This document shows, in pieces, positions 19,215 through 37,685 of a stretch of DNA of 64,000 bases; the stretch's first letter is position 1, and every line of letters begins with the position of its first letter. A model generated the notes under the pieces. That model searched no databases. It saw only the letters and a list, made by a program, of their open reading frames with translations, and was not told where the DNA came from. The translations under genes were made by a program, and so were the position numbers. Source of the stretch: Candidatus Omnitrophota bacterium (GTDB lineage Bacteria; Omnitrophota; Gorgyraeia; Duberdicusellales; 4484-171); contig JBAWWL010000001.1 of the NCBI GenBank assembly GCA_037146775.1, positions 197,464-261,463 on the forward strand, read 5' to 3'.

Positions 19215-20303
19215 TTACTTTATGAAGATGAGCCCGCTTACGCCGACCGCTAAAAAGAATAGCGGAGCAAGCCATGGGGCAAAGATTGGAAGTATTGCTC
19301 CGCCTTTTCCCAGAGCAATGCTGAAATACATAAAGGTGTAGTAAATAAAGCCGAACATAATCCCTACCCCCAAGGAAGAAAACGCCGCCCGGCGTTTCTT
19401 GATTTCTAAAGCAAAAGGGAGTGTCCCCATGATAATAAAAAAAGGCGAGAGCGGTTCCACGAGCCTGCGGTGGTAGTCAATTATCAGGTGTGCCAATTTG
19501 TCGTACGCTCTTATTCTTTTTAACTGCAGGATATCTTTTTTCAGCTTTTTAAGCGAAGAGAATTGGAAGAAAAGGCTTTTTTTGAGCGTCAAGGTTTCCG
19601 GTTTTTCTTCCAGCGGGATCATTTTTTCTTTCCAGTAAGCCGGGGCTGCCGTGATATTCCCTTTCTCGTCGAGTTGGTATTCGATGAGTTCGTAGGCTTT
19701 CCAGCGGCTCTGTTCGTAGATGAGATATTTACAAATAGTTTTCTTCGAAACATTTTTTTCTTCATTTTCTTCAAAAATCATAACATCTTGAAACATCTTT
19801 TTGTGGGGTATATATTTCCCGGAAAAAAAAATGGCATTTCCCGAGGAGAACGCGATATTTGTTTCTTCGGTTGAGGGGGCAAAATTCTTTTTTATAAAAC
19901 GCATCCGGATATCTTCTACTTTTTTCTGTGAAGTTATAAGAATCCTTTCCTGTATGACAAGCGATGCCCCAGAAATGACAATAGCAAAGAATATTACCGG
20001 AAACGACATATTAAATACGCTTATGCCGGAAGCGCGCATACTCAAGACTTCATTATTCCGGTTAAGCTCTCCAAAAGTATAAAAGACGCTTATCGCTATG
20101 GAAAAAGGGCTTACGGTAAGATATATGAGAGGAAGCATATTAAGATAGAATTGTACCAGCGTCATGGCGGGCGGTTTTGCTTTGAGGATATCGGAAAGAT
20201 TCGTTGATATATCGATAATAAAATAGAGGCAGATAAATACGAGGAGGATAAACACGTACGTCGAGATTATGTTTTTTAGAATATATTTATCTAAAATGCG
20301 CAT
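19215..20303 (-). CDS. lptG: LPS export permease LptF/LptG family (YjgP/YjgQ)
   Basis: Six-TM permease with a periplasmic beta-jellyroll insert. Paired with a paralogue immediately upstream on the same strand. Confidence 0.7.
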   Translation of the reverse strand: MRILDKYILKNIISTYVFILLVFICLYFIIDISTNLSDILKAKPPAMTLVQFYLNMLPLIYLTVSPFSIAISVFYTFGELNRNNEVLSMRASGISVFNMSFPVIFFAIVISGASLVIQERILITSQKKVEDIRMRFIKKNFAPSTEETNIAFSSGNAIFFSGKYIPHKKMFQDVMIFEENEEKNVSKKTICKYLIYEQSRWKAYELIEYQLDEKGNITAAPAYWKEKMIPLEEKPETLTLKKSLFFQFSSLKKLKKDILQLKRIRAYDKLAHLIIDYHRRLVEPLSPFFIIMGTLPFALEIKKRRAAFSSLGVGIMFGFIYYTFMYFSIALGKGGAILPIFAPWLAPLFFLAVGVSGLIFIK

Positions 20304-21378
20304 TTTTGGACAGAATATATATTCCTATCGATCCGATGATTATATTAGGAAGCCACATGCCCAAGAGGGGAGTGATTTTGCGGTATTCGATAAGCGCTTC
20401 CGCGGGGATAAACAGGAGAAAATAACTCATAGCGGTAACCGCAGCAATACCAAAATTAATAGATTTTTCCCGGTGCCGTACAAGGAGAGAAACCCCGAAG
20501 CCTAACAGGGTGAAAACTATCATCGAAAAGGAAAGGCTTACGCGTTTGTGCAGTTCCGTGAACAATTCTAACGGGCTGATCCCTTTTTTTTGCAAATAAT
20601 CTATTTTTTCTATAAGCTCTTTAACGCGCATATCCGCCGGCTTTTTTTCGATTTTGACGTTCTTTTTGTCGGAAATAGGAAGATCGACAAAAAATACCTG
20701 GAAATTCAAACGGTATAGTTCCTTCTTTTTATCCGAAGAATTTTCGTCACGAAAGCCGTTTTCCAGTTTCATTTTCAGGATGTTTTTTTCTACGACAAAC
20801 TCGCCTTTTTTTGCATAGGTAACCCTGCTGATGCCTTCTTTGTCGTTTACCTCGTACACAAACACATTCTTTAATTTGTTGCCGTCCTTATCCGAAACGT
20901 AGAGAATATAGTTAGGAAATGATTCCAGGAAGGTACCGGGCTCTATGAGCGCATTGATATTTTTCGAATACATTGTTTTCATCTGGGTGCGATACATATA
21001 GTGAAAATAGGGGTCTACTTTATCGTTGAGGATGTACAAACAAAGAGACAGTATGAATCCTAAAATCAGAAACATCTGCAAAAGCTTAAGTGACGAAATT
21101 CCCGCTACATTGATGGCGACGATTTCGTTGTCGGAAATCACCCTTCCCATAGAAAGTAAAATGCCGAATAAAAAAGAGAACGGCAAGGTATAGCGCAGCA
21201 GATTTACAAGAAAGGGGGAACACATTTTTAGGGCGTCGAGCATGTTGACCCCTTTCTGCAGCACCAGTTGCGAGGCCATCATAAGATTGATGAGCAGCAT
21301 CAACAAGCTTGCGAATAAAAGAGAGAAAATAAAGGTGATAAAGAAATCTTTTAAAATATAAGTACGTATGATTTTCAT
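20287..21378 (-). CDS. lptF: LPS export permease LptF/LptG family (YjgP/YjgQ)
   Basis: Paralogue of the previous gene; overlaps it by 17 bp. Confidence 0.7.
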   Translation of the reverse strand: MKIIRTYILKDFFITFIFSLLFASLLMLLINLMMASQLVLQKGVNMLDALKMCSPFLVNLLRYTLPFSFLFGILLSMGRVISDNEIVAINVAGISSLKLLQMFLILGFILSLCLYILNDKVDPYFHYMYRTQMKTMYSKNINALIEPGTFLESFPNYILYVSDKDGNKLKNVFVYEVNDKEGISRVTYAKKGEFVVEKNILKMKLENGFRDENSSDKKKELYRLNFQVFFVDLPISDKKNVKIEKKPADMRVKELIEKIDYLQKKGISPLELFTELHKRVSLSFSMIVFTLLGFGVSLLVRHREKSINFGIAAVTAMSYFLLFIPAEALIEYRKITPLLGMWLPNIIIGSIGIYILSKNAHFR

Positions 21379-22079
21379 ATGGTTTTTGCCAATGTTATGA
21401 CCGTAATTTCTTTGGCGCCGTTTTCTTTGAGTGTGCGGCTTGCTTCCTGCACGGTTGCTCCGGTTGTAAAAATATCATCGATGATTATGATACGTTGATT
21501 CTCCACTTGTTTTTGTATACCGAATATGCCCTTGACGTTATCTTGGCGTTGTTCTTTTTCGAGTTTGGTTTGAGAGATCTTTATTTCTTTAACATAGATT
21601 ATATCATCTTTACAGGAAATGTTAAAATAATTTGCTAATGCATGAGCCAACAAGGAGGATTGGTTATAACCTCTTTCGCGCAAATTGGAGGCGTGCATGG
21701 GGATGGGAACCAAGTCGCAGCCGGCCAAGGTGACACCGATTTTTGCTAGGTGCGTTATCATCAGAGTAGCGAAAAACCCGGCCAGATAATCGCAATTTTT
21801 ATACTTAAAGAGATGAATCAGGTTAACTAATGGTTCCTTGTATAAAGCGACGCTTATTATTCTGTCATAAGGAATATTTCCGGCTATACAATTTGCGCAT
21901 AGTCCTGTTTTATTGTTTTCTATGGATTGTGCGCAAGCGCGGCAGCTGGGCGGATAGACGTATTCGATAGCTTCCTGGCAGGCAGGGCATAGATAGCCTT
22001 CGTTGATCTTTTGTTCGCATTGGAAACATAATGATGGCAATAGAATGTCTTTTGCCGCGGCTACATACTGTCCAAACAT
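21375..22079 (-). CDS. comF: ComF-family protein (zinc-ribbon + phosphoribosyltransferase domain)
   Basis: N-terminal double CxxC zinc ribbon (CFQCEQ...CPACQE...CRACAQ...CANC) and a C-terminal PRTase motif IIIIDDIFTTGAT. Its first 144 codons lie inside repeat copy 1. Confidence 0.75.
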   Translation of the reverse strand: MFGQYVAAAKDILLPSLCFQCEQKINEGYLCPACQEAIEYVYPPSCRACAQSIENNKTGLCANCIAGNIPYDRIISVALYKEPLVNLIHLFKYKNCDYLAGFFATLMITHLAKIGVTLAGCDLVPIPMHASNLRERGYNQSSLLAHALANYFNISCKDDIIYVKEIKISQTKLEKEQRQDNVKGIFGIQKQVENQRIIIIDDIFTTGATVQEASRTLKENGAKEITVITLAKTI

Positions 22080-22126
22080 AGCCCTTATTGTACGGTATTT
22101 CTTTTTGATTGTAAAACCATTTTTAT
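21643..22126. repeat. perfect 484-bp direct repeat, copy 1 (comF 5' portion plus 47 bp upstream)
   Basis: Base-for-base identical to 23044-23527 by direct comparison of the two stretches; the flanking bases differ on both sides. Confidence 0.9.
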
Positions 22127-22350
22127 ATCAGGTAGCTTACGTTGGCGGTGTAAACAAAATAATTAGCATCCACTATACTGAAACCTTGGGAATTAAGATT
22201 ATGGTAAGGTTATCTTTCTTAATTATTTTTTTATTTCTTGCTGTTATCCCCGGCATGTCTTTTCTTGCAATAATAAAGTTTTACATGTAGACTATTTCTT
22301 TAAGTTTGTATAGAATTATCGTATGAAATAGTTAAAAAGGAGAGGTTTCT

Positions 22351-23046
22351 ATGATTTCATTAAAACGATATAAAGTCGCTCAAGACGCAGAGAGAAATTC
22401 CCACCATTTAAAAAAAGATATCAACATTCTTGAAAGAAGAACTACTTCTGCAAAAAAAGCAATTTTGCCATATTATGAATTGATGGAGAAGATGATCAAC
22501 ATAAATGAGCAAAGCAGGATAGTCGATGTTGGTAGCGGACCTACTTGCTTAGCTCGGTTCTTTAAAACAGGTAGAAAAGTTTACATAGATCCCTTGATGA
22601 ATTTTTATAAAGAATTTTATAAAGATAAAGTTCCTGATGATGGATTCCTCGTTAACGAGATGGCTGAGAAGACATCATTCCCCGATGAAACTTTTGATGT
22701 AGTTATATGCTACAATATGCTTGACCATGTTTTTGAGCCATGGAAGGTTATTGAAGAGATGAAAAGAATACTTAAACCCAATGGGTTAGTTTTGGCAGGC
22801 GTTTATATGCATAATCCTATAATGAAATTTTTAAGAATATTGGGCGAAAAATCGTGGATTTTCAAAGAAAGACCGCATCCTTATTCATTCTCAATAAAAG
22901 ATCTGCACACTCATTTTAAAGAAAACTTTATAATCAAAGTAGAAGATATAATTAAAGGCAAGGAATCCATATTAAATTTTAAAAGAAGATTTTATATTTT
23001 TATTTTGTCAAAACCGCCCAAAAATGTCAAACCTTCAAGCTCTTGA
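22351..23046 (+). CDS. class I SAM-dependent methyltransferase
   Basis: Motif I VDVGSGPTCLA and a Methyltransf_11-like core. RBS AAAGGAGAGG. The TGA stop is the first 3 nt of repeat copy 2. Confidence 0.7.
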   Translation: MISLKRYKVAQDAERNSHHLKKDINILERRTTSAKKAILPYYELMEKMININEQSRIVDVGSGPTCLARFFKTGRKVYIDPLMNFYKEFYKDKVPDDGFLVNEMAEKTSFPDETFDVVICYNMLDHVFEPWKVIEEMKRILKPNGLVLAGVYMHNPIMKFLRILGEKSWIFKERPHPYSFSIKDLHTHFKENFIIKVEDIIKGKESILNFKRRFYIFILSKPPKNVKPSSS

Positions 23047-23480
23047 GCCAACAAGGAGGATTGGTTATAACCTCTTTCGCGCAAATTGGAGGCGTGCATG
23101 GGGATGGGAACCAAGTCGCAGCCGGCCAAGGTGACACCGATTTTTGCTAGGTGCGTTATCATCAGAGTAGCGAAAAACCCGGCCAGATAATCGCAATTTT
23201 TATACTTAAAGAGATGAATCAGGTTAACTAATGGTTCCTTGTATAAAGCGACGCTTATTATTCTGTCATAAGGAATATTTCCGGCTATACAATTTGCGCA
23301 TAGTCCTGTTTTATTGTTTTCTATGGATTGTGCGCAAGCGCGGCAGCTGGGCGGATAGACGTATTCGATAGCTTCCTGGCAGGCAGGGCATAGATAGCCT
23401 TCGTTGATCTTTTGTTCGCATTGGAAACATAATGATGGCAATAGAATGTCTTTTGCCGCGGCTACATACTGTCCAAACAT
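22992..23480 (-). pseudogene. truncated comF copy (N-terminal zinc-ribbon domain only, 144 aa, plus a 19-aa unrelated tail)
   Basis: Identical to comF residues 1-144, then diverges into QELEGLTFLGGFDKIKI. It lacks the PRTase domain but keeps the comF start codon and upstream 47 bp. Confidence 0.6.
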
Positions 23481-23527
23481 AGCCCTTATTGTACGGTATT
23501 TCTTTTTGATTGTAAAACCATTTTTAT
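23044..23527. repeat. perfect 484-bp direct repeat, copy 2
   Basis: Identical to 21643-22126; offset 1401 bp. Confidence 0.9.
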
Positions 23528-23552
23528 CCGAACTGCCTATGCGCAAAATGCA

Positions 23553-23580
23553 TTGACACGGATGCGATTAATCTTATAAT
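23553..23580 (+). promoter_or_regulatory. candidate sigma70 promoter TTGACA-N16-TATAAT upstream of nifS
   Basis: Consensus -35 (23553-23558) and -10 (23575-23580) hexamers, 119 bp upstream of the nifS start. Confidence 0.4.
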
Positions 23581-23698
23581 AACCTACCATAAAGGTGCAT
23601 TATTTTTTTTGGTGTATGCGGGTATTTTGAAGCATGTGTGATGGTTCAGGTAACTTGAAAAGGCTTATCAAGGCAATAGGAAAGCAATGTAGAGGTAT

Positions 23699-24928
23699 TT
23701 GTTGCTAAAACTTAAAAAAAGCTCGAAAAAACGTCTTGAAACGCAAAGGCGGCGGTCACGAGGGAGGGCGGAAGTATATTTTGATTACAACGCGACAACT
23801 CCTCTGGATAAGAGGGTTCTGGAAAAAATGTTGCCCTATCTGGAAACTTTCTATGGAAACCCTTCCTCGATATATCGTTTTGCGCAAAGTGCACGCAAGG
23901 CCGTGGAAGATGCCCGGGAAAACATCGCCAAATTAATTTGCGCATCGCCCGAGGAAATTATTTTTACCTCCGGCGGTACCGAGGCAAACAATAGTGCCTT
24001 AAAAGGAATAGCTTTTTCTCAATGTTCCCGGGGTAAACATATTATTACCTCCGCAATAGAACACCAGGCTGTTTTGAATCCCTGCGGTTTTCTGAAAACG
24101 ATGGGTTTTGAGGTGAGCTATGTTGGTGTCGATGAGTACGGGATGGTGCGCTTAGATGAGTTAAAGAAGAATATAAGAGACGATACCATTCTAGTTTCGA
24201 TTATGCACGCTAACAACGAGGTGGGAACGATTCAGCCCATAGAAGAGGTAGGAAGTATTTGCAGGGAGCGGGAAATATATTTTCATACCGATGCAGTTCA
24301 AACTGCGGGTAGAATCCCTTTGAACGTGAAGGATCTGGGGGTTGATTTGCTTTCTTTTTCAGCTCACAAGCTGTATGGCCCAAAAGGGGTGGGAGCATTA
24401 TATGTAAGAAAAAAAACTCCTCTGCACCCGCTTATCCACGGCGGTAAACAGGAACGCGGTATGCGCGCAGGAACAGAGAACGTCGGCGGTATCGTGGGTT
24501 TTTCGGAAGCGGCAACAATTGCCGGGCAATATATGCAGCAAGATCAGGCGAGGGTGGGGGTGTTACGTAAGAAGCTGGAAGAGGGTATTTTGAAGTATAT
24601 TCCTGAAGTAAAAGTCAATGGACATCCAAAAAAAAGGTTATATAATACTTTAAATGTTTCGATAAAACATACGGAAGGCGAAAGCGTTCTGATTAACTTG
24701 GACTTTGAAGGTATTTGTGCTTCCGGCGGTTCTGCCTGCGCTTCCGGATCTCTGGAGGCCTCACACGTTCTTCTGGCCATGGGTTTATCTCCTGCACTTG
24801 CGCGGGGAGCGATACGTTTCAGCTGCGGAAGATATAACACCAAAGAGGAAGTAGACAGAGTTTTGAAGGTTTTGCCCTCTATCGTGGATAAGTTAAGGAG
24901 TATGTCGTCGTCCTGGCAGGGTAGGTAG
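23699..24928 (+). CDS. iscS: cysteine desulfurase (NifS/IscS class V aminotransferase)
   Basis: YFDYNATTP N-terminus, the PLP-lysine region SFSAHKLYGPKGVGALY and the active-site SGGSACAS. TTG start; the unusual basic N-terminal extension leaves the start uncertain. Confidence 0.85.
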   Translation: MLLKLKKSSKKRLETQRRRSRGRAEVYFDYNATTPLDKRVLEKMLPYLETFYGNPSSIYRFAQSARKAVEDARENIAKLICASPEEIIFTSGGTEANNSALKGIAFSQCSRGKHIITSAIEHQAVLNPCGFLKTMGFEVSYVGVDEYGMVRLDELKKNIRDDTILVSIMHANNEVGTIQPIEEVGSICREREIYFHTDAVQTAGRIPLNVKDLGVDLLSFSAHKLYGPKGVGALYVRKKTPLHPLIHGGKQERGMRAGTENVGGIVGFSEAATIAGQYMQQDQARVGVLRKKLEEGILKYIPEVKVNGHPKKRLYNTLNVSIKHTEGESVLINLDFEGICASGGSACASGSLEASHVLLAMGLSPALARGAIRFSCGRYNTKEEVDRVLKVLPSIVDKLRSMSSSWQGR

Positions 24929-25985: not shown

Positions 25986-26037
25986 CCCTCGGCTTCCCGA
26001 CTCGCCGAGGCGGACGCCGCGAGGCGAGCAGGCACGC
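25986..26037 (+). other. GC-rich structured island in an AT-rich intergenic region (hairpin CCTCGGC/GCCGAGG)
   Basis: About 80% GC over some 60 bp. 7-bp stem at 25987-25993 and 26004-26010 with a 10-nt loop, followed by GAGGCG repeats and A6/T5 runs. Possible nadA terminator or small structured RNA. Confidence 0.25.
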
Positions 26038-28742: not shown

Positions 28743-29000
28743 ATGTCTGCTGAGTTTTTGGTCGCTAGCTGTCATTATATTGATGAAGTCGGCACTTTGA
28801 TTGGAGGAGAAGTCTTGAAAGGGCGGATTGAGGAGGGCGAATGGGGGGCAACCGCCTCTGGCAAAAAGTTTCTGGTGTCGAAAATGGAGTTTCAAGGCGA
28901 CCGCAGGGTCAGCGCGAGCGAGCATGAGAAGGTTAATCTCTATGCTATACATATTTCGCAAACGTATGTGCGGGCGGGAGACACTCTTTATTTTTATTAA
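28743..29000 (+). CDS. hypothetical small protein (85 aa); doubtful
   Basis: Only an ORF in the gap before the PqqD gene; weak RBS and no recognisable motif. Confidence 0.2.
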   Translation: MSAEFLVASCHYIDEVGTLIGGEVLKGRIEEGEWGATASGKKFLVSKMEFQGDRRVSASEHEKVNLYAIHISQTYVRAGDTLYFY

Positions 29001-29038
29001 GTACGCTGCGCATAGCTTATATCGCAAGGAGACACATA

Positions 29039-29329
29039 ATGGAAACTAAAAAGCAAAATCCGCTGGCGAACCCTTCTATCGTATTGCGCGAAGAATTCGA
29101 CGATTGGGCCCTTCTTTTTGACCCGGATACGAACGATATCTTCGCCATAGATCCGGTAGCGGTATTTATCTGGAAGCTTCTTAACGGGAAACGCAGCTGC
29201 AAGGCTATCCTGGAAGAATTAAAAGAGTGCTGCGACGATATACCCGAAGACGCCGGAACGTATGTGAATGATTTTATCCGGCAGTTGGAAGAGCGGGGTT
29301 TAGTTGGATATGAATCAACTCAAAACTGA
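29039..29329 (+). CDS. PqqD-family peptide chaperone (RiPP recognition element)
   Basis: 96 aa. Pattern VLREEFDDWALLFDPDTNDIFAIDPVAVFIWKLLNGKRSCKAILEEL...FIRQLEERGLV is typical of PqqD/RRE proteins. RBS AAGGAGA. Confidence 0.8.
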   Translation: METKKQNPLANPSIVLREEFDDWALLFDPDTNDIFAIDPVAVFIWKLLNGKRSCKAILEELKECCDDIPEDAGTYVNDFIRQLEERGLVGYESTQN

Positions 29330-30464
29330 TGAGGGTATAAAACTTGTACGTAGCCCGCGTTCCGTAGAGATCGCAATAACCAATACCTGCAATTTACGTT
29401 GCGCATACTGCAGCCATTTCACTAGCGCCGCTGATGTTCCTGGGGATGTTTCCCTCGAAGATTGGCTCTGTTTCTTCGAAGAATTAAACCGCTGTTCGGT
29501 ATTGAAAGTATGTTTGGATGGCGGGGAGCCGTTCCACAGAAAAGATATAATTCAGATTATCCAAGGTATCGTTGCCAACCGCATGCGTTTCTCTGTTTTA
29601 AGTAACGGTACTTTGCTGACTGACGAAATTGCTGCATTCTTGGCTTCAACGCGAAGATGTGATTTTATCCAAATTTCCCTGGACGGTTCTATTGCGACTA
29701 CGCATGATGCCCTGCGGGGTGAAGGCAGTTTTCGGAAAGCTCTCGCAGGCATCCAGGCGCTTCAGAAACACAACATACCGGTTGCGGTCCGCGTTACTAT
29801 CCATAAGCATAATTTGAATCAGCTTGAAGAACTTACGCATTTTTTATTAGAGGAAATAGGGCTGCGCAGTTTTAGTACCAATGCCGCCTCGTATATGGGT
29901 TTATGCCGCAAGAATTCCAGCCAAGTACAACTGACTGTCGGAGAGCGTTCCTTGGCAATGGAAAAACTTCTTACGCTTAGCAATAAGTATCCCAATCGTA
30001 TCAGTGCTATGGCAGGGCCTTTAGCCGAAGCGAAAGGTTGGCTTGAAATGGAAGAAGCCCGGCACACAAGAAAGGCTCAACCAGCCGGGCGAGGATATTT
30101 AACGGGCTGTGCAGGCCCGATGAGTAAAATTGCTCTTCGTCCCGACGGTGTCTTTGTTCCTTGTATTCTGTTGAGCCATATAGAACTAGGAAAGATGAAC
30201 AAAGATGATTTTCGAGCTATTTGGCAGTCTCATCCGGCGCTAAAAAGTTTACGCAGCCGGCATTTGATTCCGTTAAACGAATTCGCCTTTTGTAAAGATT
30301 GTCTTTATGTAGATTATTGTGCCGGCGGCTGTCCGGCCTTAAGCTATACTGTTGTGGGTAACATGAATCATCCCAATCCCGACACCTGTTTGCGCAAGTT
30401 TCTTGCGGAGGGCGGATATCTGCCGCGAAAAGGATTTTTGGAGGCTACGACAGTTGTATGTTAA
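29304..30464 (+). CDS. radical SAM/SPASM-domain peptide-modifying enzyme
   Basis: CxxxCxxC (CNLRCAYC) radical SAM motif. The C-terminus carries the SPASM cysteine array (GCAG...C, CKDCLYVDYCAGGCPA). Overlaps the PqqD end. Confidence 0.85.
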   Translation: MDMNQLKTDEGIKLVRSPRSVEIAITNTCNLRCAYCSHFTSAADVPGDVSLEDWLCFFEELNRCSVLKVCLDGGEPFHRKDIIQIIQGIVANRMRFSVLSNGTLLTDEIAAFLASTRRCDFIQISLDGSIATTHDALRGEGSFRKALAGIQALQKHNIPVAVRVTIHKHNLNQLEELTHFLLEEIGLRSFSTNAASYMGLCRKNSSQVQLTVGERSLAMEKLLTLSNKYPNRISAMAGPLAEAKGWLEMEEARHTRKAQPAGRGYLTGCAGPMSKIALRPDGVFVPCILLSHIELGKMNKDDFRAIWQSHPALKSLRSRHLIPLNEFAFCKDCLYVDYCAGGCPALSYTVVGNMNHPNPDTCLRKFLAEGGYLPRKGFLEATTVVC

Positions 30465-31612
30465 CTGATGAGCGTATCGGTACGTCTGTTGATTCAGAGA
30501 AAAAACAAACCCCTCTCTTACGCTACTTGTATTTTTATCTTATTGATGGTTGTAACCTTAATTGCCGGCACTGCTGGATTAATCCCCGTTCCCAAGTTAG
30601 CCCTGGTGCTATACCCGGCGTGTTTCTTGATTTCGATCTTTTTAAGTCAATCGTGCAGCAAGCAAAACCTTTTGGCCTTAGGGGGATAAAACTGACCGGC
30701 GGAGAACCATTACTGCACCCCCGTATCGTGGACATACTGGCATTTTTGCAGAAAGAGGAATTTTCGGTGGTTCTGGAGACAAACGCGGTTCTCTGCAGCA
30801 CTGAGTTTGCCAAAAAGCTCAGCGCCCTAAAAAATATTTTTGTCAGCGTAAGCGTGGATGGTTCTTGCAGCCAGACTCACGACTGGATACGCCAGAGCGA
30901 GGGAAGTTTTGCGGCCGCCATAAAAGGGATCCAAACTTTTGTTTCCTCCGGCATACGGCCGCAAATTATCATGACGATTATGCGCCGCAATAAAGGCGAG
31001 ATCGAGCAGCTTATAAAAATGGCTGAAGGCCTAGGTATCGAATCGGTTAAATTCAATATTACCCAGCCTACTGCCCGGGCTACCACATTGCAGGAAAATG
31101 GCGAAACGCTTACTATCGCAGAGTTGGTGTCGTTGGGCACCTGGATTGAGCGCGAGCTTTCGAAAAAGACCTCTTTACGTATTGTATATAGCCATCCTCC
31201 TGCGTTCCAGCCGCTTGGCAAATTGTATGCAACTACAAAAGATTTCTGTGGTGCCTGCGGGGTCTTGAATATCCTGGGAGTGCTTGCCAACGGTTCCTAC
31301 GCTCTATGCGGTATTGGACAGACGGTCCCTGAATTGGTGTTTGGCCATGCAGCCTCTGACAGGCTTATTGATGTGTGGCAGCATAACGCCGCGCTTACGG
31401 CATTGCGGCAAGGGTTACCGCATAAACTTGAAGGTATTTGTCAGGCTTGTTTAATGAAAAGCCGTTGCCGCGGCCATTGTATTGCCGAAAACTTCTCCAT
31501 GCACAAAAATTTGTGGGCAGGGTACTGGTATTGTGAAGCAGCATACCAACAAGGCCTTTTCCCTTTAAGCCGATTATCCCCAAAACATAAAAACGTTAGT
31601 GTGAGTAATTAA
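30458..31612 (+). CDS. radical SAM/SPASM-domain peptide-modifying enzyme (second paralogue)
   Basis: CNLNCRHC radical SAM motif and C-terminal SPASM cysteines (CGAC...C, CQACLMKSRCRGHC). ATGA-type overlap with the upstream rSAM gene. Confidence 0.85.
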   Translation: MLTDERIGTSVDSEKKQTPLLRYLYFYLIDGCNLNCRHCWINPRSQVSPGAIPGVFLDFDLFKSIVQQAKPFGLRGIKLTGGEPLLHPRIVDILAFLQKEEFSVVLETNAVLCSTEFAKKLSALKNIFVSVSVDGSCSQTHDWIRQSEGSFAAAIKGIQTFVSSGIRPQIIMTIMRRNKGEIEQLIKMAEGLGIESVKFNITQPTARATTLQENGETLTIAELVSLGTWIERELSKKTSLRIVYSHPPAFQPLGKLYATTKDFCGACGVLNILGVLANGSYALCGIGQTVPELVFGHAASDRLIDVWQHNAALTALRQGLPHKLEGICQACLMKSRCRGHCIAENFSMHKNLWAGYWYCEAAYQQGLFPLSRLSPKHKNVSVSN

Positions 31613-31621
31613 GGAGGAGAT

Positions 31622-31846
31622 ATGCCCAAAAAAATCAAATGGACCAAACCACTCTTGAGGCCGGTAGATGGGTTAAAGAATGTTAGAGAAGGGGTGTCCT
31701 TGTCGTGTAATGATGGTAGTTCTGATGCGACCTCATGTAGCATGGGCAATAGCTTTTCTGGTGGTGACTGTACATCTTATGGCTCGAGCTATACTCCTCC
31801 GGTTTGCCCTGGCTATGGCTCTAGCTATTATTGCCCTATGGGTTGA
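31622..31846 (+). CDS. candidate RiPP precursor peptide (74 aa; Lys-rich leader, Cys/Ser/Gly/Tyr-rich core)
   Basis: Strong RBS AAGGAGGAGAT before the ATG. The translation was checked codon by codon. Five Cys at positions 29, 39, 50, 62 and 71; the YGSSY motif occurs twice. Encoded immediately after the two rSAM/SPASM genes. Confidence 0.6.
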   Translation: MPKKIKWTKPLLRPVDGLKNVREGVSLSCNDGSSDATSCSMGNSFSGGDCTSYGSSYTPPVCPGYGSSYYCPMG

Positions 31847-31893
31847 TGGTTTGTCAAATTCAGTAGTAGAATATTTTAGTAGATACCATAAGT

Positions 31894-32805
31894 ATGGTTA
31901 CGCCCGTCTATACATTGTTCTTGGAAGAGGAACTAAAGTGGTATATAACCGCTACCGAAGACGCATCTTCCTGGATGCATAAATTTGCCGCTATCATGCA
32001 GCTAGAACCTTCTTCTACGAACAGGTTTTCGAAGCTTATTTTTACTACTCTGCAGGTAGACCAGAAATTATCTTCCGCATTAGCCCGCACCCTGCATGAT
32101 TGTTCCGGCGATATCTTCCCTCCACAAGACTGGTGGTTTGAGGATTTAGGCTTGGTTAAGTTTTGGCGTAACCAACATAGCGAGCACATTATTTGTCAGC
32201 TTTCCGGCCAGTCTATATATGAGGTTGATATCAACAAAATGTCCTTATCTCTTCATGTTATCTATCAAAAAGCCATAGAAAAAGAAGGCTTGCCCTTACA
32301 TGCCGGTCTAGTAGAAAAAGAAGAGATGGGTGTAGTACTGGCAGCGCCTGGTTCTACCGGTAAATCAACCTGTTGTCGCCGCATTCCTTTTCCTTGGCAC
32401 GCTTTATGCGATGATGAAACGTTGCTGGTGCGTGATGTCCAAGGAAGTTTCTACGCACACCCTTTTCCGACTTGGAGCGAGTATCTTTGTAAGCGTTCCG
32501 AGCGGACATGGAATGTAGAAAGAAGGATTCCTTTGTCGGCAATATTTTTTTTAGCCCAATCAGAGACCGAGGAGTTAGCGGCTATAACTCAGGCGGAATC
32601 GGCAGCATTTCTCCACCAGCTGTCTTTACAAATTTACGGACGCGGCTTAAAACGGCTCAAAGCCAGCGAAGGAAAGAAACAATCCCGCTGTTTGTTTGAT
32701 AATGCCTGTCAGCTGGCCAAATCTTTACCGGCATATATGTTGCGTGTCAGCCGGGAGGGTAGATTCTGGGAGAAAATGGAGGAAGCTCTTGAAAGAGTCT
32801 GTTGA
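31894..32805 (+). CDS. HPr-kinase-like P-loop protein (HprK-related / ScmC-like)
   Basis: P-loop APGSTGKST in the position of the HprK C-terminal kinase-domain Walker A. About 300 aa. Sits inside the rSAM/PqqD cassette. Confidence 0.5.
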   Translation: MVTPVYTLFLEEELKWYITATEDASSWMHKFAAIMQLEPSSTNRFSKLIFTTLQVDQKLSSALARTLHDCSGDIFPPQDWWFEDLGLVKFWRNQHSEHIICQLSGQSIYEVDINKMSLSLHVIYQKAIEKEGLPLHAGLVEKEEMGVVLAAPGSTGKSTCCRRIPFPWHALCDDETLLVRDVQGSFYAHPFPTWSEYLCKRSERTWNVERRIPLSAIFFLAQSETEELAAITQAESAAFLHQLSLQIYGRGLKRLKASEGKKQSRCLFDNACQLAKSLPAYMLRVSREGRFWEKMEEALERVC

Positions 32806-33394
32806 CGTTAATTTTGCTTATTTTGGTGCAGGCCCCAGCATGAAGCCTACGATATGTGCGCATGACCTTCTTTCTGTTTTTGCGTACAACGAGAGAAAAA
32901 TTATCCGCGGCGATGTGGTGGTTTTTATATCTCCCTTGAATGGCCGAAAAATTGCTCACCGGGTTATTTGCGCCGGAAAGCAGCATATCAGGACTAAGGG
33001 TGACCACAATCGCTATGTGGATCCCTGGTTGCTTACCCCGCAGGATATTATTGGTCAGGTAGCCTATGTACAAAGAGGAAAAAAGAGAATTCGTATTTAT
33101 GGTGCAGTGCTGGGAGAGCTTTATGTAACCAAGATAAAAATAATGTGTTTTGTGCGCAAAAGCGCATCTTTTATTTTTGGTATGTGTTACCGTTATATAG
33201 CCCAAAAAAGTCTGTTCTACCGTTTGAGTAAATTTTTTCTTAAACCGCGGCTGGTGGTATTTAACCGGCCTGGAGGAGAAGACCTGCAGTTGGTGCTCGG
33301 CCATAGCTTTGTCGTTGGCCGCCGTATGCCCGGAAAAAACACATGGCATATCCGCCGGCCGTTTCGTCTTCTGGTAGATAAAGCATTCCAGTAA
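32696..33394 (+). CDS. S24/S26-family Ser-Lys peptidase (signal peptidase I-like); start likely near 32789
   Basis: GAGPSMKPT (the SMxPT serine box) and KGDHNRY (the Lys/GDxNR box) of signal peptidase I/LexA-type peptidases. No N-terminal TM anchor. The longest ORF overlaps the upstream gene, so the true start is probably TTG 32789 or nearby. Confidence 0.55.
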   Translation: MIMPVSWPNLYRHICCVSAGRVDSGRKWRKLLKESVDVNFAYFGAGPSMKPTICAHDLLSVFAYNERKIIRGDVVVFISPLNGRKIAHRVICAGKQHIRTKGDHNRYVDPWLLTPQDIIGQVAYVQRGKKRIRIYGAVLGELYVTKIKIMCFVRKSASFIFGMCYRYIAQKSLFYRLSKFFLKPRLVVFNRPGGEDLQLVLGHSFVVGRRMPGKNTWHIRRPFRLLVDKAFQ

Positions 33395-33456
33395 TTTTGT
33401 AACAAGGCTTTCCTTCTCGCCCGGCATTTCTTTATGTCATCTTTTTTCCAAAACAC

Positions 33457-34653
33457 ATGAGCGTAATGCATAAAAGAATTACCTGGTTAGTCTGTGGTAA
33501 TTTTAACGGTTATCTCGATGACGGCGGCACCAACAGTACGTTGACGTTGTTGCGGGAATTACAGAAAAGAGGCGCTTCCTGCAGTGTGCAAGTTTTTCTT
33601 GGCTTGGGAAGTGTTGCGTCTCTGACGGCGTATGTTGCAAGAGTGAGAGATTTTGCCCACAGTGGCAGGATCATAATAAAAAAAGGCTACGTATCGTTTT
33701 ACGTAAAAAATATTCTTATTGAAGCACGCATCGTCAAGGAGAATATTTTTAAGCTGTATCATACGCGTGACGAAAAAGCGTTACGTGCCCTCACGCTCCA
33801 CATAAAAGCAATACTACGAATGACGCGGCCGGATATTATTATTACCAGCCAGGAAGATATTTTTTCTTTACGGGCGGCCGATGAATCAGGGATTCCTTGT
33901 TGCCATATTTTTTCGTCCGCGTGTTTTAAATTCCTCGATACGTTCAATATATACAAAAATGAATTCCGCGCATGCTTGGCAAAAACACTGGTAGTTACGT
34001 GTTCTTGTTTTCTAAAAAGAGATATAAGGAATATCTGGAATAAAAGAGCAATTTTATTACCGGCGCTGATTGACCGTATTTCATGCGTGGCCAAGAAGAG
34101 AAACCCGCGTTACATAACTTTCGTCAACTGTCATCCTCATAAGGGGGCAGTGATATTCTGGAATATAGCCAGAAAATTGCCGCATAAAAGATTTTTGGTA
34201 ATCGATAACCACGGATTTTTTCCGCTTAAGTCACCTCTGAAAAATGTCACTGTATTGCGTCGGCAATCAGACATGAAAAAAGTCTACCGGCTTACAAAAA
34301 TATTGCTTTTTCCCTCTCTTGTGGAGGAAAGCTATGGCATGGTTCTCGTTGAGGCGATGGCGAACGGTATTCCGGTTATCGCTAATCGCATAGAAGGCAT
34401 AAAAAATACTTTGCAAAAGGCAGGATTCCTTGTAGATATCAATCAAAGAGATAAAGATAAGAAAGATTATTTTTATAATTCCCTCTACCACATGAAAACA
34501 TATCAACAGTATGTGGCGTTAATTACCATGTTAGATTCCGATAGTGCGGTGTATAATAAAGCTTCGAAAAAAGCTCTGCAGGAAGCAGAAAGGATTATGA
34601 GCAGGCAGCGTCAAGCATTGGAGGGTTTCGCGGATCTTATCGCAAAGCGATAA
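33457..34653 (+). CDS. glycosyltransferase family 4 (GT1-type fold)
   Basis: C-terminal donor-binding motif EESYGMVLVEAMANGIPVIANRIEGI. Confidence 0.7.
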   Translation: MSVMHKRITWLVCGNFNGYLDDGGTNSTLTLLRELQKRGASCSVQVFLGLGSVASLTAYVARVRDFAHSGRIIIKKGYVSFYVKNILIEARIVKENIFKLYHTRDEKALRALTLHIKAILRMTRPDIIITSQEDIFSLRAADESGIPCCHIFSSACFKFLDTFNIYKNEFRACLAKTLVVTCSCFLKRDIRNIWNKRAILLPALIDRISCVAKKRNPRYITFVNCHPHKGAVIFWNIARKLPHKRFLVIDNHGFFPLKSPLKNVTVLRRQSDMKKVYRLTKILLFPSLVEESYGMVLVEAMANGIPVIANRIEGIKNTLQKAGFLVDINQRDKDKKDYFYNSLYHMKTYQQYVALITMLDSDSAVYNKASKKALQEAERIMSRQRQALEGFADLIAKR

Positions 34654-34717
34654 GGTTCTCTAACGTTGGCGTAGGCGTGAGTATGTGTACAGGGTGTAAA
34701 ATGTTTTTCGTTAACTG

Positions 34718-36451
34718 ATGAAAATAAGAAATATAGTCTGGCGTCGTTTTCTCCCGTATTTATACAGGTATCGGAAGCTACAGGTTGCTGTTATGGTTTT
34801 AAGCCTCCTGGCTATTCCGCTTGCCCTTTTGAGCCCTTACCTTGCGAAGCTGGTTATCGACAAGGCGTATATGGGCAAAGACCTGGCGTTATTTTTTATT
34901 CTTGCGGTAATAGGCGGTTTGGTCTTTGTGGTTACTGCTCTTATAAGCTCTTTGAATGATTATCTTTTAATGCGTATGAACCGCCGGGTTTGTTTTGATA
35001 TGGGAAGGGATATCTTCAGGCATCTCCAGAATCTGTCTTTAAGCTTTTTTGACACCAAGTCAGCCAGTGAACACATATATAAAATACATAATGATGTAAA
35101 TATCGTAAGTGCTTTTCTTTGTAACGCGTTGCCTCAAGGTGTCACCCTTGTCGTGCGATTTTTATGTATCTTCATCGTGGTGTTGCATCTTAACTGGAAA
35201 CTCGCTCTTTTTGCATTTTTTATGATTCCTGTAAGCTTCATCCACCCCTGTTTTTTCCGCAAACTGTTAAAAGAATCGACTACCGGAATGATAGAGAAAT
35301 CTCAAAGAATGTTCAGGTATCTTTGTGAAGTTTTTAGCCACACGCATCTGGTAAAAGCTTTTGGCAAAGAGGAATGCGAGACGCATCGGTTTGAGGTTGT
35401 TTCTCTGGAAAGATTCAACGTGGAGGCTACGCGCGATAAGTTGTTGAGTATAAGCGCTTTTTCCGGTTCTGTCCTAAACAAAATTATCAATGGCTTTATT
35501 GCCCTATATGGAGGGTATCAGGTTATTACCGGCGCTATGACGCTTGGTAGTTTCAGCGCGATAATGATTTATTCAGCCCAGCTTACAGGGCTTTCCAAAT
35601 TATTAGCCAAATTTTACGAAAATATCGCCATTAATTCGGTTTCTGTAGAGCGGTTGATTGAAATTTTAGATACCAAGCCAAAGATCGCAAACAAGAAAGA
35701 CGCTTTAGATTATCAAATCTTAAAGGGGAGTATCGACTTTAAAGACGTCTCTTTTGGGTATAAGGAAAACAGTTTTGTTTTGAAAAGTATGAATTTTGAA
35801 ATTACTCCTGGCTCGAAAATTGCCATTACCGGCCCTTCGGGGTGCGGGAAAACCACTTTGCTCTCGCTTATGTTAAGGATATATGACGTTAAAGACGGGG
35901 CTGTTTTGATCGATGGAATGGACATCAGGGATATGAGAATAGAGGCGCTTACGTCGCAAGTCGCCATAGTACTCCAGGAGCCTTTTTTATGGAACGATAC
36001 CATAGCGTGTAATATTCTGTATGGTATGGAGGGTGCCACTCAAAAGCAGATGGTTGAAGCGGCAAAAATTGCCGAGATACACGAGTTTATCGTGAGCCTT
36101 GAATGCGGTTACGATAGCGAAATCGGTGAAATGGCTTGTTTGCTTTCCGAAGGCCAAAAACAGCGTCTGGCCATTGCGCGTGCTGTTATAAAACGGCCGG
36201 CTGTCCTGCTTTTTGACGAAGCCTTTTCTTCTATAGATTCCGAAACCGAAAACAAAATCATAGATAATATTAATGGGCATCTTGCGGGTACCACTGTTAT
36301 AGTTGTTTCCCATAGAATTTCTACTATAAAAAGAATGGATGCGGTTTATTTCTTTGAGGGCCATTCCCATCTTGTGCGAAGTGCTCATTCCGAGCTTGTA
36401 AAAAGCAACGCGGCGTACAAGGAATTATTTACCGGTCAGCACGCCTCGTAA
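34718..36451 (+). CDS. ABC exporter, fused transmembrane and ATP-binding domains
   Basis: Six N-terminal TM helices, then Walker A GPSGCGKTT, signature LSEGQKQRLAIARA and Walker B LLFDEA. Confidence 0.85.
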   Translation: MKIRNIVWRRFLPYLYRYRKLQVAVMVLSLLAIPLALLSPYLAKLVIDKAYMGKDLALFFILAVIGGLVFVVTALISSLNDYLLMRMNRRVCFDMGRDIFRHLQNLSLSFFDTKSASEHIYKIHNDVNIVSAFLCNALPQGVTLVVRFLCIFIVVLHLNWKLALFAFFMIPVSFIHPCFFRKLLKESTTGMIEKSQRMFRYLCEVFSHTHLVKAFGKEECETHRFEVVSLERFNVEATRDKLLSISAFSGSVLNKIINGFIALYGGYQVITGAMTLGSFSAIMIYSAQLTGLSKLLAKFYENIAINSVSVERLIEILDTKPKIANKKDALDYQILKGSIDFKDVSFGYKENSFVLKSMNFEITPGSKIAITGPSGCGKTTLLSLMLRIYDVKDGAVLIDGMDIRDMRIEALTSQVAIVLQEPFLWNDTIACNILYGMEGATQKQMVEAAKIAEIHEFIVSLECGYDSEIGEMACLLSEGQKQRLAIARAVIKRPAVLLFDEAFSSIDSETENKIIDNINGHLAGTTVIVVSHRISTIKRMDAVYFFEGHSHLVRSAHSELVKSNAAYKELFTGQHAS

Positions 36452-36512
36452 CGGAAGGTTGTCGCTGGTTGTCTGTGCTACCGTTCTGTTGTTCCGGAGG
36501 ATGAATTAGCTT

Positions 36513-37685
36513 ATGACGTACATGAAAAGATCGCAAACCATACCGGCTCAATATAGCGCACACATGGTCAATGCCGAAAAGTTTGTGGTGCTGTGCGTGC
36601 AGTATAATGGCGATGAATCTTTGCGGGAACAGGCAATGGCGTTCATCGCCGAGGGGATTGACTGGGAATATTTTGTTGATATTAGCGTAGCGCAAAAGAT
36701 TGCCGTCATGGTATATAACGTAATATACAAGATCGTACCACCCGAATGTATTCCTTGCTTTGTTTTTGACGCGCTGCGCAACGCATACCTTTATATAGTA
36801 TCGAAAACGCTTCTAAAACATACAGAGACCCTAAAGCTTTTAAGATTGTGTGCTCAGGCGCAAGTAAAGGTCGTGCCGCTTAAAGGGACTATTTTGGCGA
36901 AACGTCTGTACGGCCAAGTGCACCTGCGTGACTTAAGTTCGGATATTGATTTATTTATCGAAGAAAAAGATAAATTATGCGCGAGAGATATACTTGCCAG
37001 AGAAGGGTATGTTTTGCGTTTACGGGGTAACGACGATTATTCCGGGTATAATGAGTTTATGAAAGCAGGTTTTGGCAGTATTGACTTACAATGGAAGATA
37101 GTCGAGACTATTGATTGCAGCCGTTCCAGGCTAGAAGGTTTTTGGAGAGCCGTACAAAAAACGGAGGAGGAAGACATAACTTTTAGTGTGTTTCAAACGG
37201 AAGAATTATTGTTGTATCTTTGCGCCCACAGCATGAGCAAACATTGTTTCGGCCAGTTACGGCATATCTGCGATATACATCAGCTTTTGGTAGTGGAGCA
37301 TGCAGCGATCGACTGGAACCGCATCGTTGCGAAGGCAAAAGAATGGAATCTTTTAACTTCCTTGTATTGCGCGCTGTCGATGCGGCAATACTTTTTTAAA
37401 ATTTCTGTTGCGCCCGAAATAAAGAAAGTTTTAAAAATATCAAGGTTCAAGATTATGTTGCTAAAAGTATTTACGGATGAATTGGTCTTCTTCCGGCGGC
37501 AAAGCTTCCGGCGGCGCTTGGTAGACAGGTTTCTGGGTTTCGTTTTTTTTAGATTCGTTGAGGCGCGCAGCTTGAGAGATTACTTCTTTTTTGTTTTTCC
37601 TCCCAGGGAAGCGCTGCAAAGTAAAAGTTATCTTACCATGTTTTGGCGAGGATTGGGAAAGCTTACTTCGGTATTTGCACGATAA
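36513..37685 (+). CDS. nucleotidyltransferase-like protein (uncharacterised NTase family often seen in RiPP clusters)
   Basis: Central VVPLKGTILAKRLYG...DLSSDIDLFI region resembles pol-beta-type NTase GS...D.D motifs. The family assignment is from memory and unverified. Confidence 0.45.
   Translation: MTYMKRSQTIPAQYSAHMVNAEKFVVLCVQYNGDESLREQAMAFIAEGIDWEYFVDISVAQKIAVMVYNVIYKIVPPECIPCFVFDALRNAYLYIVSKTLLKHTETLKLLRLCAQAQVKVVPLKGTILAKRLYGQVHLRDLSSDIDLFIEEKDKLCARDILAREGYVLRLRGNDDYSGYNEFMKAGFGSIDLQWKIVETIDCSRSRLEGFWRAVQKTEEEDITFSVFQTEELLLYLCAHSMSKHCFGQLRHICDIHQLLVVEHAAIDWNRIVAKAKEWNLLTSLYCALSMRQYFFKISVAPEIKKVLKISRFKIMLLKVFTDELVFFRRQSFRRRLVDRFLGFVFFRFVEARSLRDYFFFVFPPREALQSKSYLTMFWRGLGKLTSVFAR

Follow-up and report, generated by a model that had tools for sequence, protein, structure and literature searches.

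A 484-bp direct repeat bracketing a methyltransferase gene beside comF in an Omnitrophota genome: a probable insertion with long target duplication

Nobusato 2000 (Gene 259:99) and Furuta 2010 (NAR 38:2428, PMC2853133) described a class of gene insertion called insertion with long target duplication. In the published cases, direct repeats of 46-423 bp flank inserts of less than 20 kb that carry no mobility genes; the insert is sometimes low in GC content, and the hosts are mostly naturally competent (Nobusato 2000; PMC2853133). The class was defined on restriction-modification cargo, and restriction and modification genes were a search criterion of Furuta 2010 (PMC2853133). The target duplications of transposons and insertion sequences (IS) are under ~10 bp, and 19-26 bp at most (PMC2853133). 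Here, we analyzed a stretch of 64,000 nucleotides (the window, 64 kb) of contig JBAWWL010000001.1 from a metagenome-assembled genome (MAG) of Candidatus Omnitrophota (GCA_037146775.1), in which two copies of a 484-bp sequence from the 5' end of comF bracket a gene for a class I S-adenosylmethionine (SAM)-dependent methyltransferase. We conclude that this feature probably reflects a genuine and very recent event, in which a horizontally acquired methyltransferase cassette was inserted and 484 bp of target DNA were duplicated. As such, it is a rare kind of insertion that has already been described, not a new type of system.

The repeat, comF and the promoters at its boundaries

By direct comparison, all 484 bases of window positions 21643-22126 recur at 23044-23527, and the match ends sharply, with a mismatch at the very next base on each side. 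The first copy (R1, 21643-22126) consists of 437 nt from the 5' end of comF and 47 nt upstream, including the comF promoter, and the second (R2, 23044-23527) starts 1401 bp after it. Between them lies a unique segment of 917 bp, U (22127-23043), giving a repeat-U-repeat layout with one intact and one truncated comF. A repeat scan found no other direct or inverted repeat of at least 40 nt in the window. Because the repeat is exact and the only one of this length there, a chance origin is excluded. With zero divergence between the copies over 484 bp, the event is also very recent.

These results bear out most of the original prediction, which had described a perfect 484-bp direct repeat with a period of 1401: the identity is complete and the ends are sharp. 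Its anatomy was correct throughout, with an intact and a truncated comF, a methyltransferase gene between them, and a methyltransferase stop codon supplied by the first three nucleotides of copy 2 (TGA at 23044-23046). Two of its lengths need adjusting. The repeat had been given as 435 bp of comF plus 47 bp upstream, of which the 47 nt stand and the comF share is 437 nt; and the truncated comF product, credited with a 19-residue tail, in fact has 17 residues after 145 ComF residues, for a total of 162 amino acids. No transposase or integrase had been noticed nearby, and we likewise found none among the open reading frames (ORFs) scanned between 7.6 and 37.7 kb, which are housekeeping or biosynthetic.

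Full-length comF (21375-22079, minus strand; 234 amino acids, MEI8348599.1) encodes a double zinc ribbon and a phosphoribosyltransferase domain (Pfam DZR_2 and Pribosyltran); the protein scores under the cut-offs of the NCBIfam GntX and ComF models. The gene overlaps the start of lptF by 4 nt, and lptF and lptG (19215-21378, minus strand; Pfam LptF_LptG) follow downstream in the same operon-like block, an order that is kept in relatives. Truncated comF (22992-23480, minus strand; MEI8348601.1) takes its 17-residue tail from the antisense strand of the methyltransferase gene. Its annotation as a double zinc ribbon protein calls for caution, as MEI8348601.1 is a comF stump that arose as a by-product. 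MEI8348599, MEI8348600 (the methyltransferase) and MEI8348601 are consecutive NCBI proteins on the 398,100-bp contig of the MAG.

A promoter scan placed TTTACA, a 17-nt spacer and TACAAT 7 nt before the comF ATG (22087-22115, minus strand), an arrangement of the leaderless type. Eight Omnitrophota relatives (43-57% amino acid identity) have the motif at the same distance from the ATG: in the upstream regions of loci L006-L015 it reads TTTACA, 16-17 nt, TACAAT or a close variant, and ~7 nt to the start codon. This conservation suggests that TTTACA-N17-TACAAT is a promoter giving a leaderless comF-lptFG transcript across the group. From the scan and the relatives, the duplicated copy of the promoter (23488-23516, minus strand) is predicted to drive truncated comF. 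On the other side of the repeat boundary, a perfect TTGACA-16-TATAAT (23553-23580, plus strand) forms a promoter-like site for nifS, which is untouched.

The outer end of the repeat lies 11 nt past the -35 element of comF and 25 nt before the nifS promoter-like site, placing the right-hand joint within the 36-nt gap that separates the two divergent promoters. The left-hand joint falls in the middle of comF and is made harmless by the duplication. Because the duplicated piece holds the comF promoter and stops before the nifS promoter, no gene is broken: copy 1 and the DNA downstream of it make up a full, promoter-equipped comF-lptF-lptG block, and nifS keeps its promoter. The boundaries thus show how such an insertion stays harmless, the duplication carrying the promoter of an operon that includes the lipopolysaccharide-transport genes lptF and lptG. 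Copy 2 would act as a promoter-equipped comF stump whose reading frame runs on into the methyltransferase gene on the antisense strand. The layout is what would be expected of a rearrangement that survived selection; this argument is post hoc, and we use it as supporting evidence only.

Origin of the inserted segment

No other 917-bp stretch of the window is as low in GC as U, which has 31-32% compared to a mean of 43% (standard deviation 2.7). Its methyltransferase gene (22351-23046, plus strand; 231 amino acids, MEI8348600.1) matches Pfam Methyltransf_11 with E = 1e-14. Relatives of the gene with 88-90% amino acid and 89-91.5% nucleotide identity occur on loci L001-L004 and L009. By comparison, the best relative of ComF among 5.8 billion proteins shows 57-58% amino acid identity, and other neighbor genes of the window show 52-78% in the loci fetched through ComF. 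Because the methyltransferase is an identity outlier relative to ComF and the neighbor genes, the sequences indicate that U was acquired horizontally.

In the related loci, the methyltransferase gene follows heptosyltransferase-family and ABC-ATPase genes and lies upstream of a PMT_2 glycosyltransferase gene. This neighborhood is a cell-envelope glycan cluster, found in other Omnitrophota, and no orthologue of such a donor-type cluster, which might have been the origin of the gene, is present in the 64-kb window. Profile searches gave no equivalog-level match for the methyltransferase and no match to a DNA-methylase family or signature, and the insert lacks a nuclease gene. The substrate is probably a glycan or other small molecule, not DNA. 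One 88%-identical methyltransferase, on L004 (CAZYZC010000022.1), belongs to a genome labeled "uncultured Planctomycetia"; the other relatives with an organism name are all labeled Omnitrophota or Omnitrophica. The L004 label may reflect a taxonomic or binning mislabel or a further transfer of the glycan cluster. Nearly all long ORFs of the window (1-64000) lie on the plus strand; comF-lptF-lptG forms the sole long minus-strand stretch, and the inserted methyltransferase gene is co-oriented with the plus-strand majority.

Compared to its nearest homologue (P0001, on L001; 90% amino acid and 91.5% nucleotide identity), the methyltransferase lacks the last six residues and takes its stop codon from R2. 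These six C-terminal residues belong to a tail of variable length within the family, and all family-invariant residues (56/56) are kept. Because the invariant residues are intact and the lost tail is length-variable, the enzyme looks functional. Against its nearest sampled relatives, the ratio of nonsynonymous to synonymous divergence (dN/dS) is 0.16-0.19 and the synonymous divergence is 0.25-0.32. Given this synonymous divergence, no sampled donor can have supplied the gene as a fresh copy, and its immediate donor is unsampled.

Nucleotide similarity to the relatives begins at 22245-22253, right after the stop codon of their ABC-ATPase gene, and U therefore carried the gene's own upstream region. 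This region (22253-22350, plus strand) is 86% identical to the L001 intergenic region upstream of the methyltransferase homologue. It contains a promoter-like site and a Shine-Dalgarno-like AAAGGAGAGG, the latter read straight off the sequence, both brought in with the gene. At the other end, similarity stops at 23042, 22 nt before the stop codon of the relatives and near the start of R2 at 23044. The single base between them, a T at 23043, fits neither the donor-type sequence nor comF when compared with L001 8660-8730.

Searches with the left end of the insert, U1 (22127-22252; 126 nt, 33% GC), against the rest of the window, the loci fetched, and phage, plasmid and viral-contig sequences found no similarity at the nucleotide or translated level, nor did U1 match an Rfam or protein family. 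U1 is either filler or donor DNA without a sampled relative. The insert as a whole had no match in phage or plasmid records or viral contigs, and its only Rfam hit was one sub-threshold chance match. The flanks of the two joints share no microhomology; both joints are blunt and without a common core sequence, and the insert has no significant terminal inverted repeats. Both the extra T and the 126 orphan bases resemble filler added at the junctions, or else donor sequence that has not been sampled.

The arrangement before the insertion can be read from more distant relatives. In L006 and L008 (53-57% amino acid identity in ComF), mnmA, nadA, nifS and one small gene are divergent from comF-lptF-lptG, with alr, tsaD and tsaE on the opposite strand after that block, and the order in the window is the same. 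Loci L010-L014 have comF-lptF-lptG-alr without an insert. A single comF and no insert is the state of all of L006, L008 and L010-L015, which are only 43-57% identical in ComF. As these relatives share the gene order, have a single comF and lack the methyltransferase, both the insert and the duplication appear to be derived in the window's lineage. The comF-nifS interval itself holds an Rrf2-family regulator in L006 (4326-4733) and a nitroreductase in L008 (4117-4758); no remnant of either gene was detected in the 171 nt at window positions 23528-23698.

The same data bear on a course in two steps, in which the comF 5' region first underwent a simple tandem duplication of 484 bp and foreign DNA was then inserted exactly at its joint, and on a source of the insert within the same genome. 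Tandem duplications are common in bacteria, and the synonymous difference of 0.25-0.32 from the nearest sampled relatives means that the unsampled donor could be the host's own genome. However, two independent events at one nucleotide are less economical than one, and there is no second copy of the methyltransferase from this genome in its 90% protein cluster or elsewhere in the 64-kb window. We therefore regard these variants as very unlikely.

Contig ends in other assemblies

Two further assemblies represent the same organism as the window. An exact look-up of LptF led to contig CAZTHQ010000013.1 (219 kb) of assembly GCA_964613555.1, whose end aligns with window positions 21783 to 10287 at 100% identity and thus lies within the repeat, exactly 141 nt from its left end. 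The corresponding look-up of NadA led to contig CAZTHQ010000009.1 (46 kb) of the same assembly, which starts at window position 23387, exactly 141 nt before the right end of the repeat, again at 100% identity. NadA also led to a Logan contig from SRR12676968, whose start at 23498 likewise falls within the repeat, exactly 30 nt from its right end. A left-end Logan contig with a 98-amino acid partial ComF was predicted beforehand and was found: SRR12676968_7902 (22 kb) ends at window position 21672, 30 nt inside the left end.

A sequence in a de Bruijn graph is marked as a branching node when contigs end k or k-1 bases into it. We take the 141-nt overlaps in GCA_964613555.1 to reflect a 141-mer graph, and the Logan assembly presumably used k = 31. 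Because contigs of two assemblies stop k or k-1 bases inside both ends of the repeat, the repeat is a branching node in the reads, with two left contexts leading in and two right contexts leading out. The branch points are the exact bases that bound the repeat in the window. A plain comF-to-nifS genome would not give such contig ends, and the contigs found in GCA_964613555.1 and Logan SRR12676968 stop inside the repeat on both sides instead of running straight from comF to nifS through one copy. Provided that the insert is continuous, as it is in the window, the contig ends fit only a tandem array of at least one unit, possibly accompanied by insert-free cells, and pop-out circles derived from it.

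These contig ends weigh against the possibility that the joints exist in no cell and arose from a chimeric library molecule, or from a small unrelated molecule threaded into the chromosome as a graph loop. Such an artefact would be in keeping with the metagenomic source of the genome, the perfect identity of the copies, the foreign composition of the insert and the fact that no second assembly showed it. However, two de Bruijn assemblies with different k break at both boundaries of the repeat to the exact base, and reads must therefore leave the repeat into sequence other than its flanks. Furthermore, the joints share no sequence that could cause a k-mer misjoin, and the boundaries spare both promoters, as expected after selection and not from an artefact. 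The assembly artefact that had been listed among the options in the original prediction is now quite unlikely.

Several points nevertheless count against a genuine insertion with long target duplication. The tandem order rests on the assembler of the window, and a mix of insert-bearing and insert-free cells, or multiple units, would give the same assembly graph. The insert was not recovered in a second assembly: the 231-amino acid methyltransferase is recorded only in the NCBI entry of the window, and exact look-ups in the contig index came back empty for the methyltransferase and for both the full and the truncated ComF. The other assemblies may share the sequencing library of the window, which makes a library-level artefact possible. 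Scans of genome_contigs and metagenome_contigs, in which the best matches were 88% for the methyltransferase and 50% for ComF, gave no empty-site allele of the same species at the nucleotide level; the comparison with relatives lacking the methyltransferase that had been proposed at the outset thus yielded distant relatives with a single comF and no insert, and not the empty site of the species itself. In addition, the joints lack microhomology and are compatible with several joining routes, and the cargo is not of the restriction-modification type by which the class was searched for.

Two further observations concern the population. In SRR12676968, both boundaries of the repeat branch, yet no product at least 90% identical to the methyltransferase is recorded from the run; the insert-bearing form may be rare or fragmented there. 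A single G/T difference at window position 24805 distinguishes the window from Logan contig SRR12676968_412944, which ends at window position 26031, and points to some strain-level polymorphism in the population.

Further along the window, at ~28743-37685 on the plus strand, lies a cluster with small ORFs that resembles those for peptide natural-product maturation. It includes a PqqD-like protein (~29039-29329), two radical SAM enzymes (29304-31612), one of them with a SPASM domain, a ScmC-family protein (31894-32805), a glycosyltransferase, an ABC exporter and an NTP_transf_5 nucleotidyltransferase.

Course of the insertion and comparison with known systems

In the course that we favor, the inserted fragment would have consisted of the 126 nt of U1, followed by the methyltransferase gene with its own upstream region but without its last few codons. 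Its two joints would lie 484 bp apart on the target, with the result that 484 bp were copied to both sides of the insert. A single illegitimate event could produce this outcome if foreign DNA was ligated between breaks staggered by 484 nt and the ends were then filled in. Alternatively, two template switches during replication or repair might have led to the same product. To our knowledge, no experiment has demonstrated the mechanism of insertion with long target duplication.

Campbell-type integration would reach the same structure by a different route, with a 1401-bp circle made of the repeat and the insert joining the comF region through one RecA-dependent crossover within the 484-bp homology. 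The product is exactly what a single crossover yields, down to the repeat-insert-repeat topology with one intact and one truncated gene copy, and the tandem form would release circles by pop-out that are able to re-integrate or amplify. The circle, however, must already hold 484 bp of host comF joined bluntly to foreign DNA at both ends, and the illegitimate joints would still need explaining because both would already be present in it. Moreover, nothing in the insert would serve replication, transfer or recombination, searches among plasmids, phages and viruses turned up no relative of it, and in comparison with suicide or integrative plasmids there is no vector backbone, origin or mobility gene. 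We accordingly give this route a low probability. Among the options raised in the original prediction, a duplication in progress comes closest to the course that we favor, while Campbell-type integration gives the same product but needs a circle that already carries host DNA. That prediction did not recognize the horizontal acquisition of U, the comF promoter within the duplication or the match to insertion with long target duplication.

Whatever joined them, repeats like the 484-bp pair should be unstable under RecA-dependent recombination, leading to loss or amplification of the cassette. An extension of this idea, which we consider unlikely, is that the cassette is a reversible unit driven by host recombination and that cells with zero, one or several copies coexist in the population. 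The 484-bp repeats would then allow a 1.4-kb circle to pop out, the cassette to amplify and, possibly, the circle to re-enter by transformation. If true, this would amount to the "virus-like life cycle" proposed for restriction-modification genes, in an ordinary metabolic gene and at zero divergence.

Insertion by known mobile elements was considered and rejected. Like transposons and IS elements, the locus has an insert flanked by a direct target duplication; an IS or transposon origin is rejected in view of the lack of a transposase among the ORFs scanned between 7.6 and 37.7 kb, the missing terminal inverted repeats and the duplication length of 484 bp, which, as had been noted at the outset, is too long for an IS given a known maximum of 19-26 bp. 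A site-specific integrative element or integrase island is rejected as well, with no integrase among the same ORFs, no tRNA gene anywhere in the 64-kb window and joints without a common core. For a diversity-generating retroelement, the repeats are identical and no reverse transcriptase is found among the neighboring genes scanned; for an integron cassette, the defining genes and sites are absent.

A tandem duplication with filler DNA at its join point, formed by illegitimate recombination or template switching, shares some features: it likewise has a duplicate in direct orientation, a novel joint free of homology and extra sequence at that joint. Typical bacterial join points carry zero to a few bases, and the filler here would be 917 bp with a whole foreign gene and its upstream region.

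The closest match is insertion with long target duplication. As in the published cases, a short insert lies between direct repeats without an integrase, a transposase or terminal inverted repeats, the insert is low in GC, and the repeats could permit amplification or loss. The insert, at 917 bp and with one gene, is well within 20 kb and has no integrase, transposase, prophage or tRNA target, and its flanking repeats, which are longer than 30 bp, are unique within the 64-kb window. Four differences stand beside these likenesses. At 484 bp, the repeat is longer, and its copies show no difference; the host belongs to the Omnitrophota and is uncultured; the target of the published cases is single-copy in relatives, whereas here the empty site is seen in distant relatives only; and the cargo is a lone class I SAM-dependent methyltransferase of a glycan-cluster family. 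Since this cargo is not a restriction-modification system, breakage induced by restriction cannot be invoked, which argues that the process is independent of restriction enzymes. By this route, which is poorly understood, bacteria gain genes without mobile-element machinery. The present case is a useful one, as its undiverged copies preserve pristine joints, one marked by a lone extra T and the other by the 126 nt of U1.

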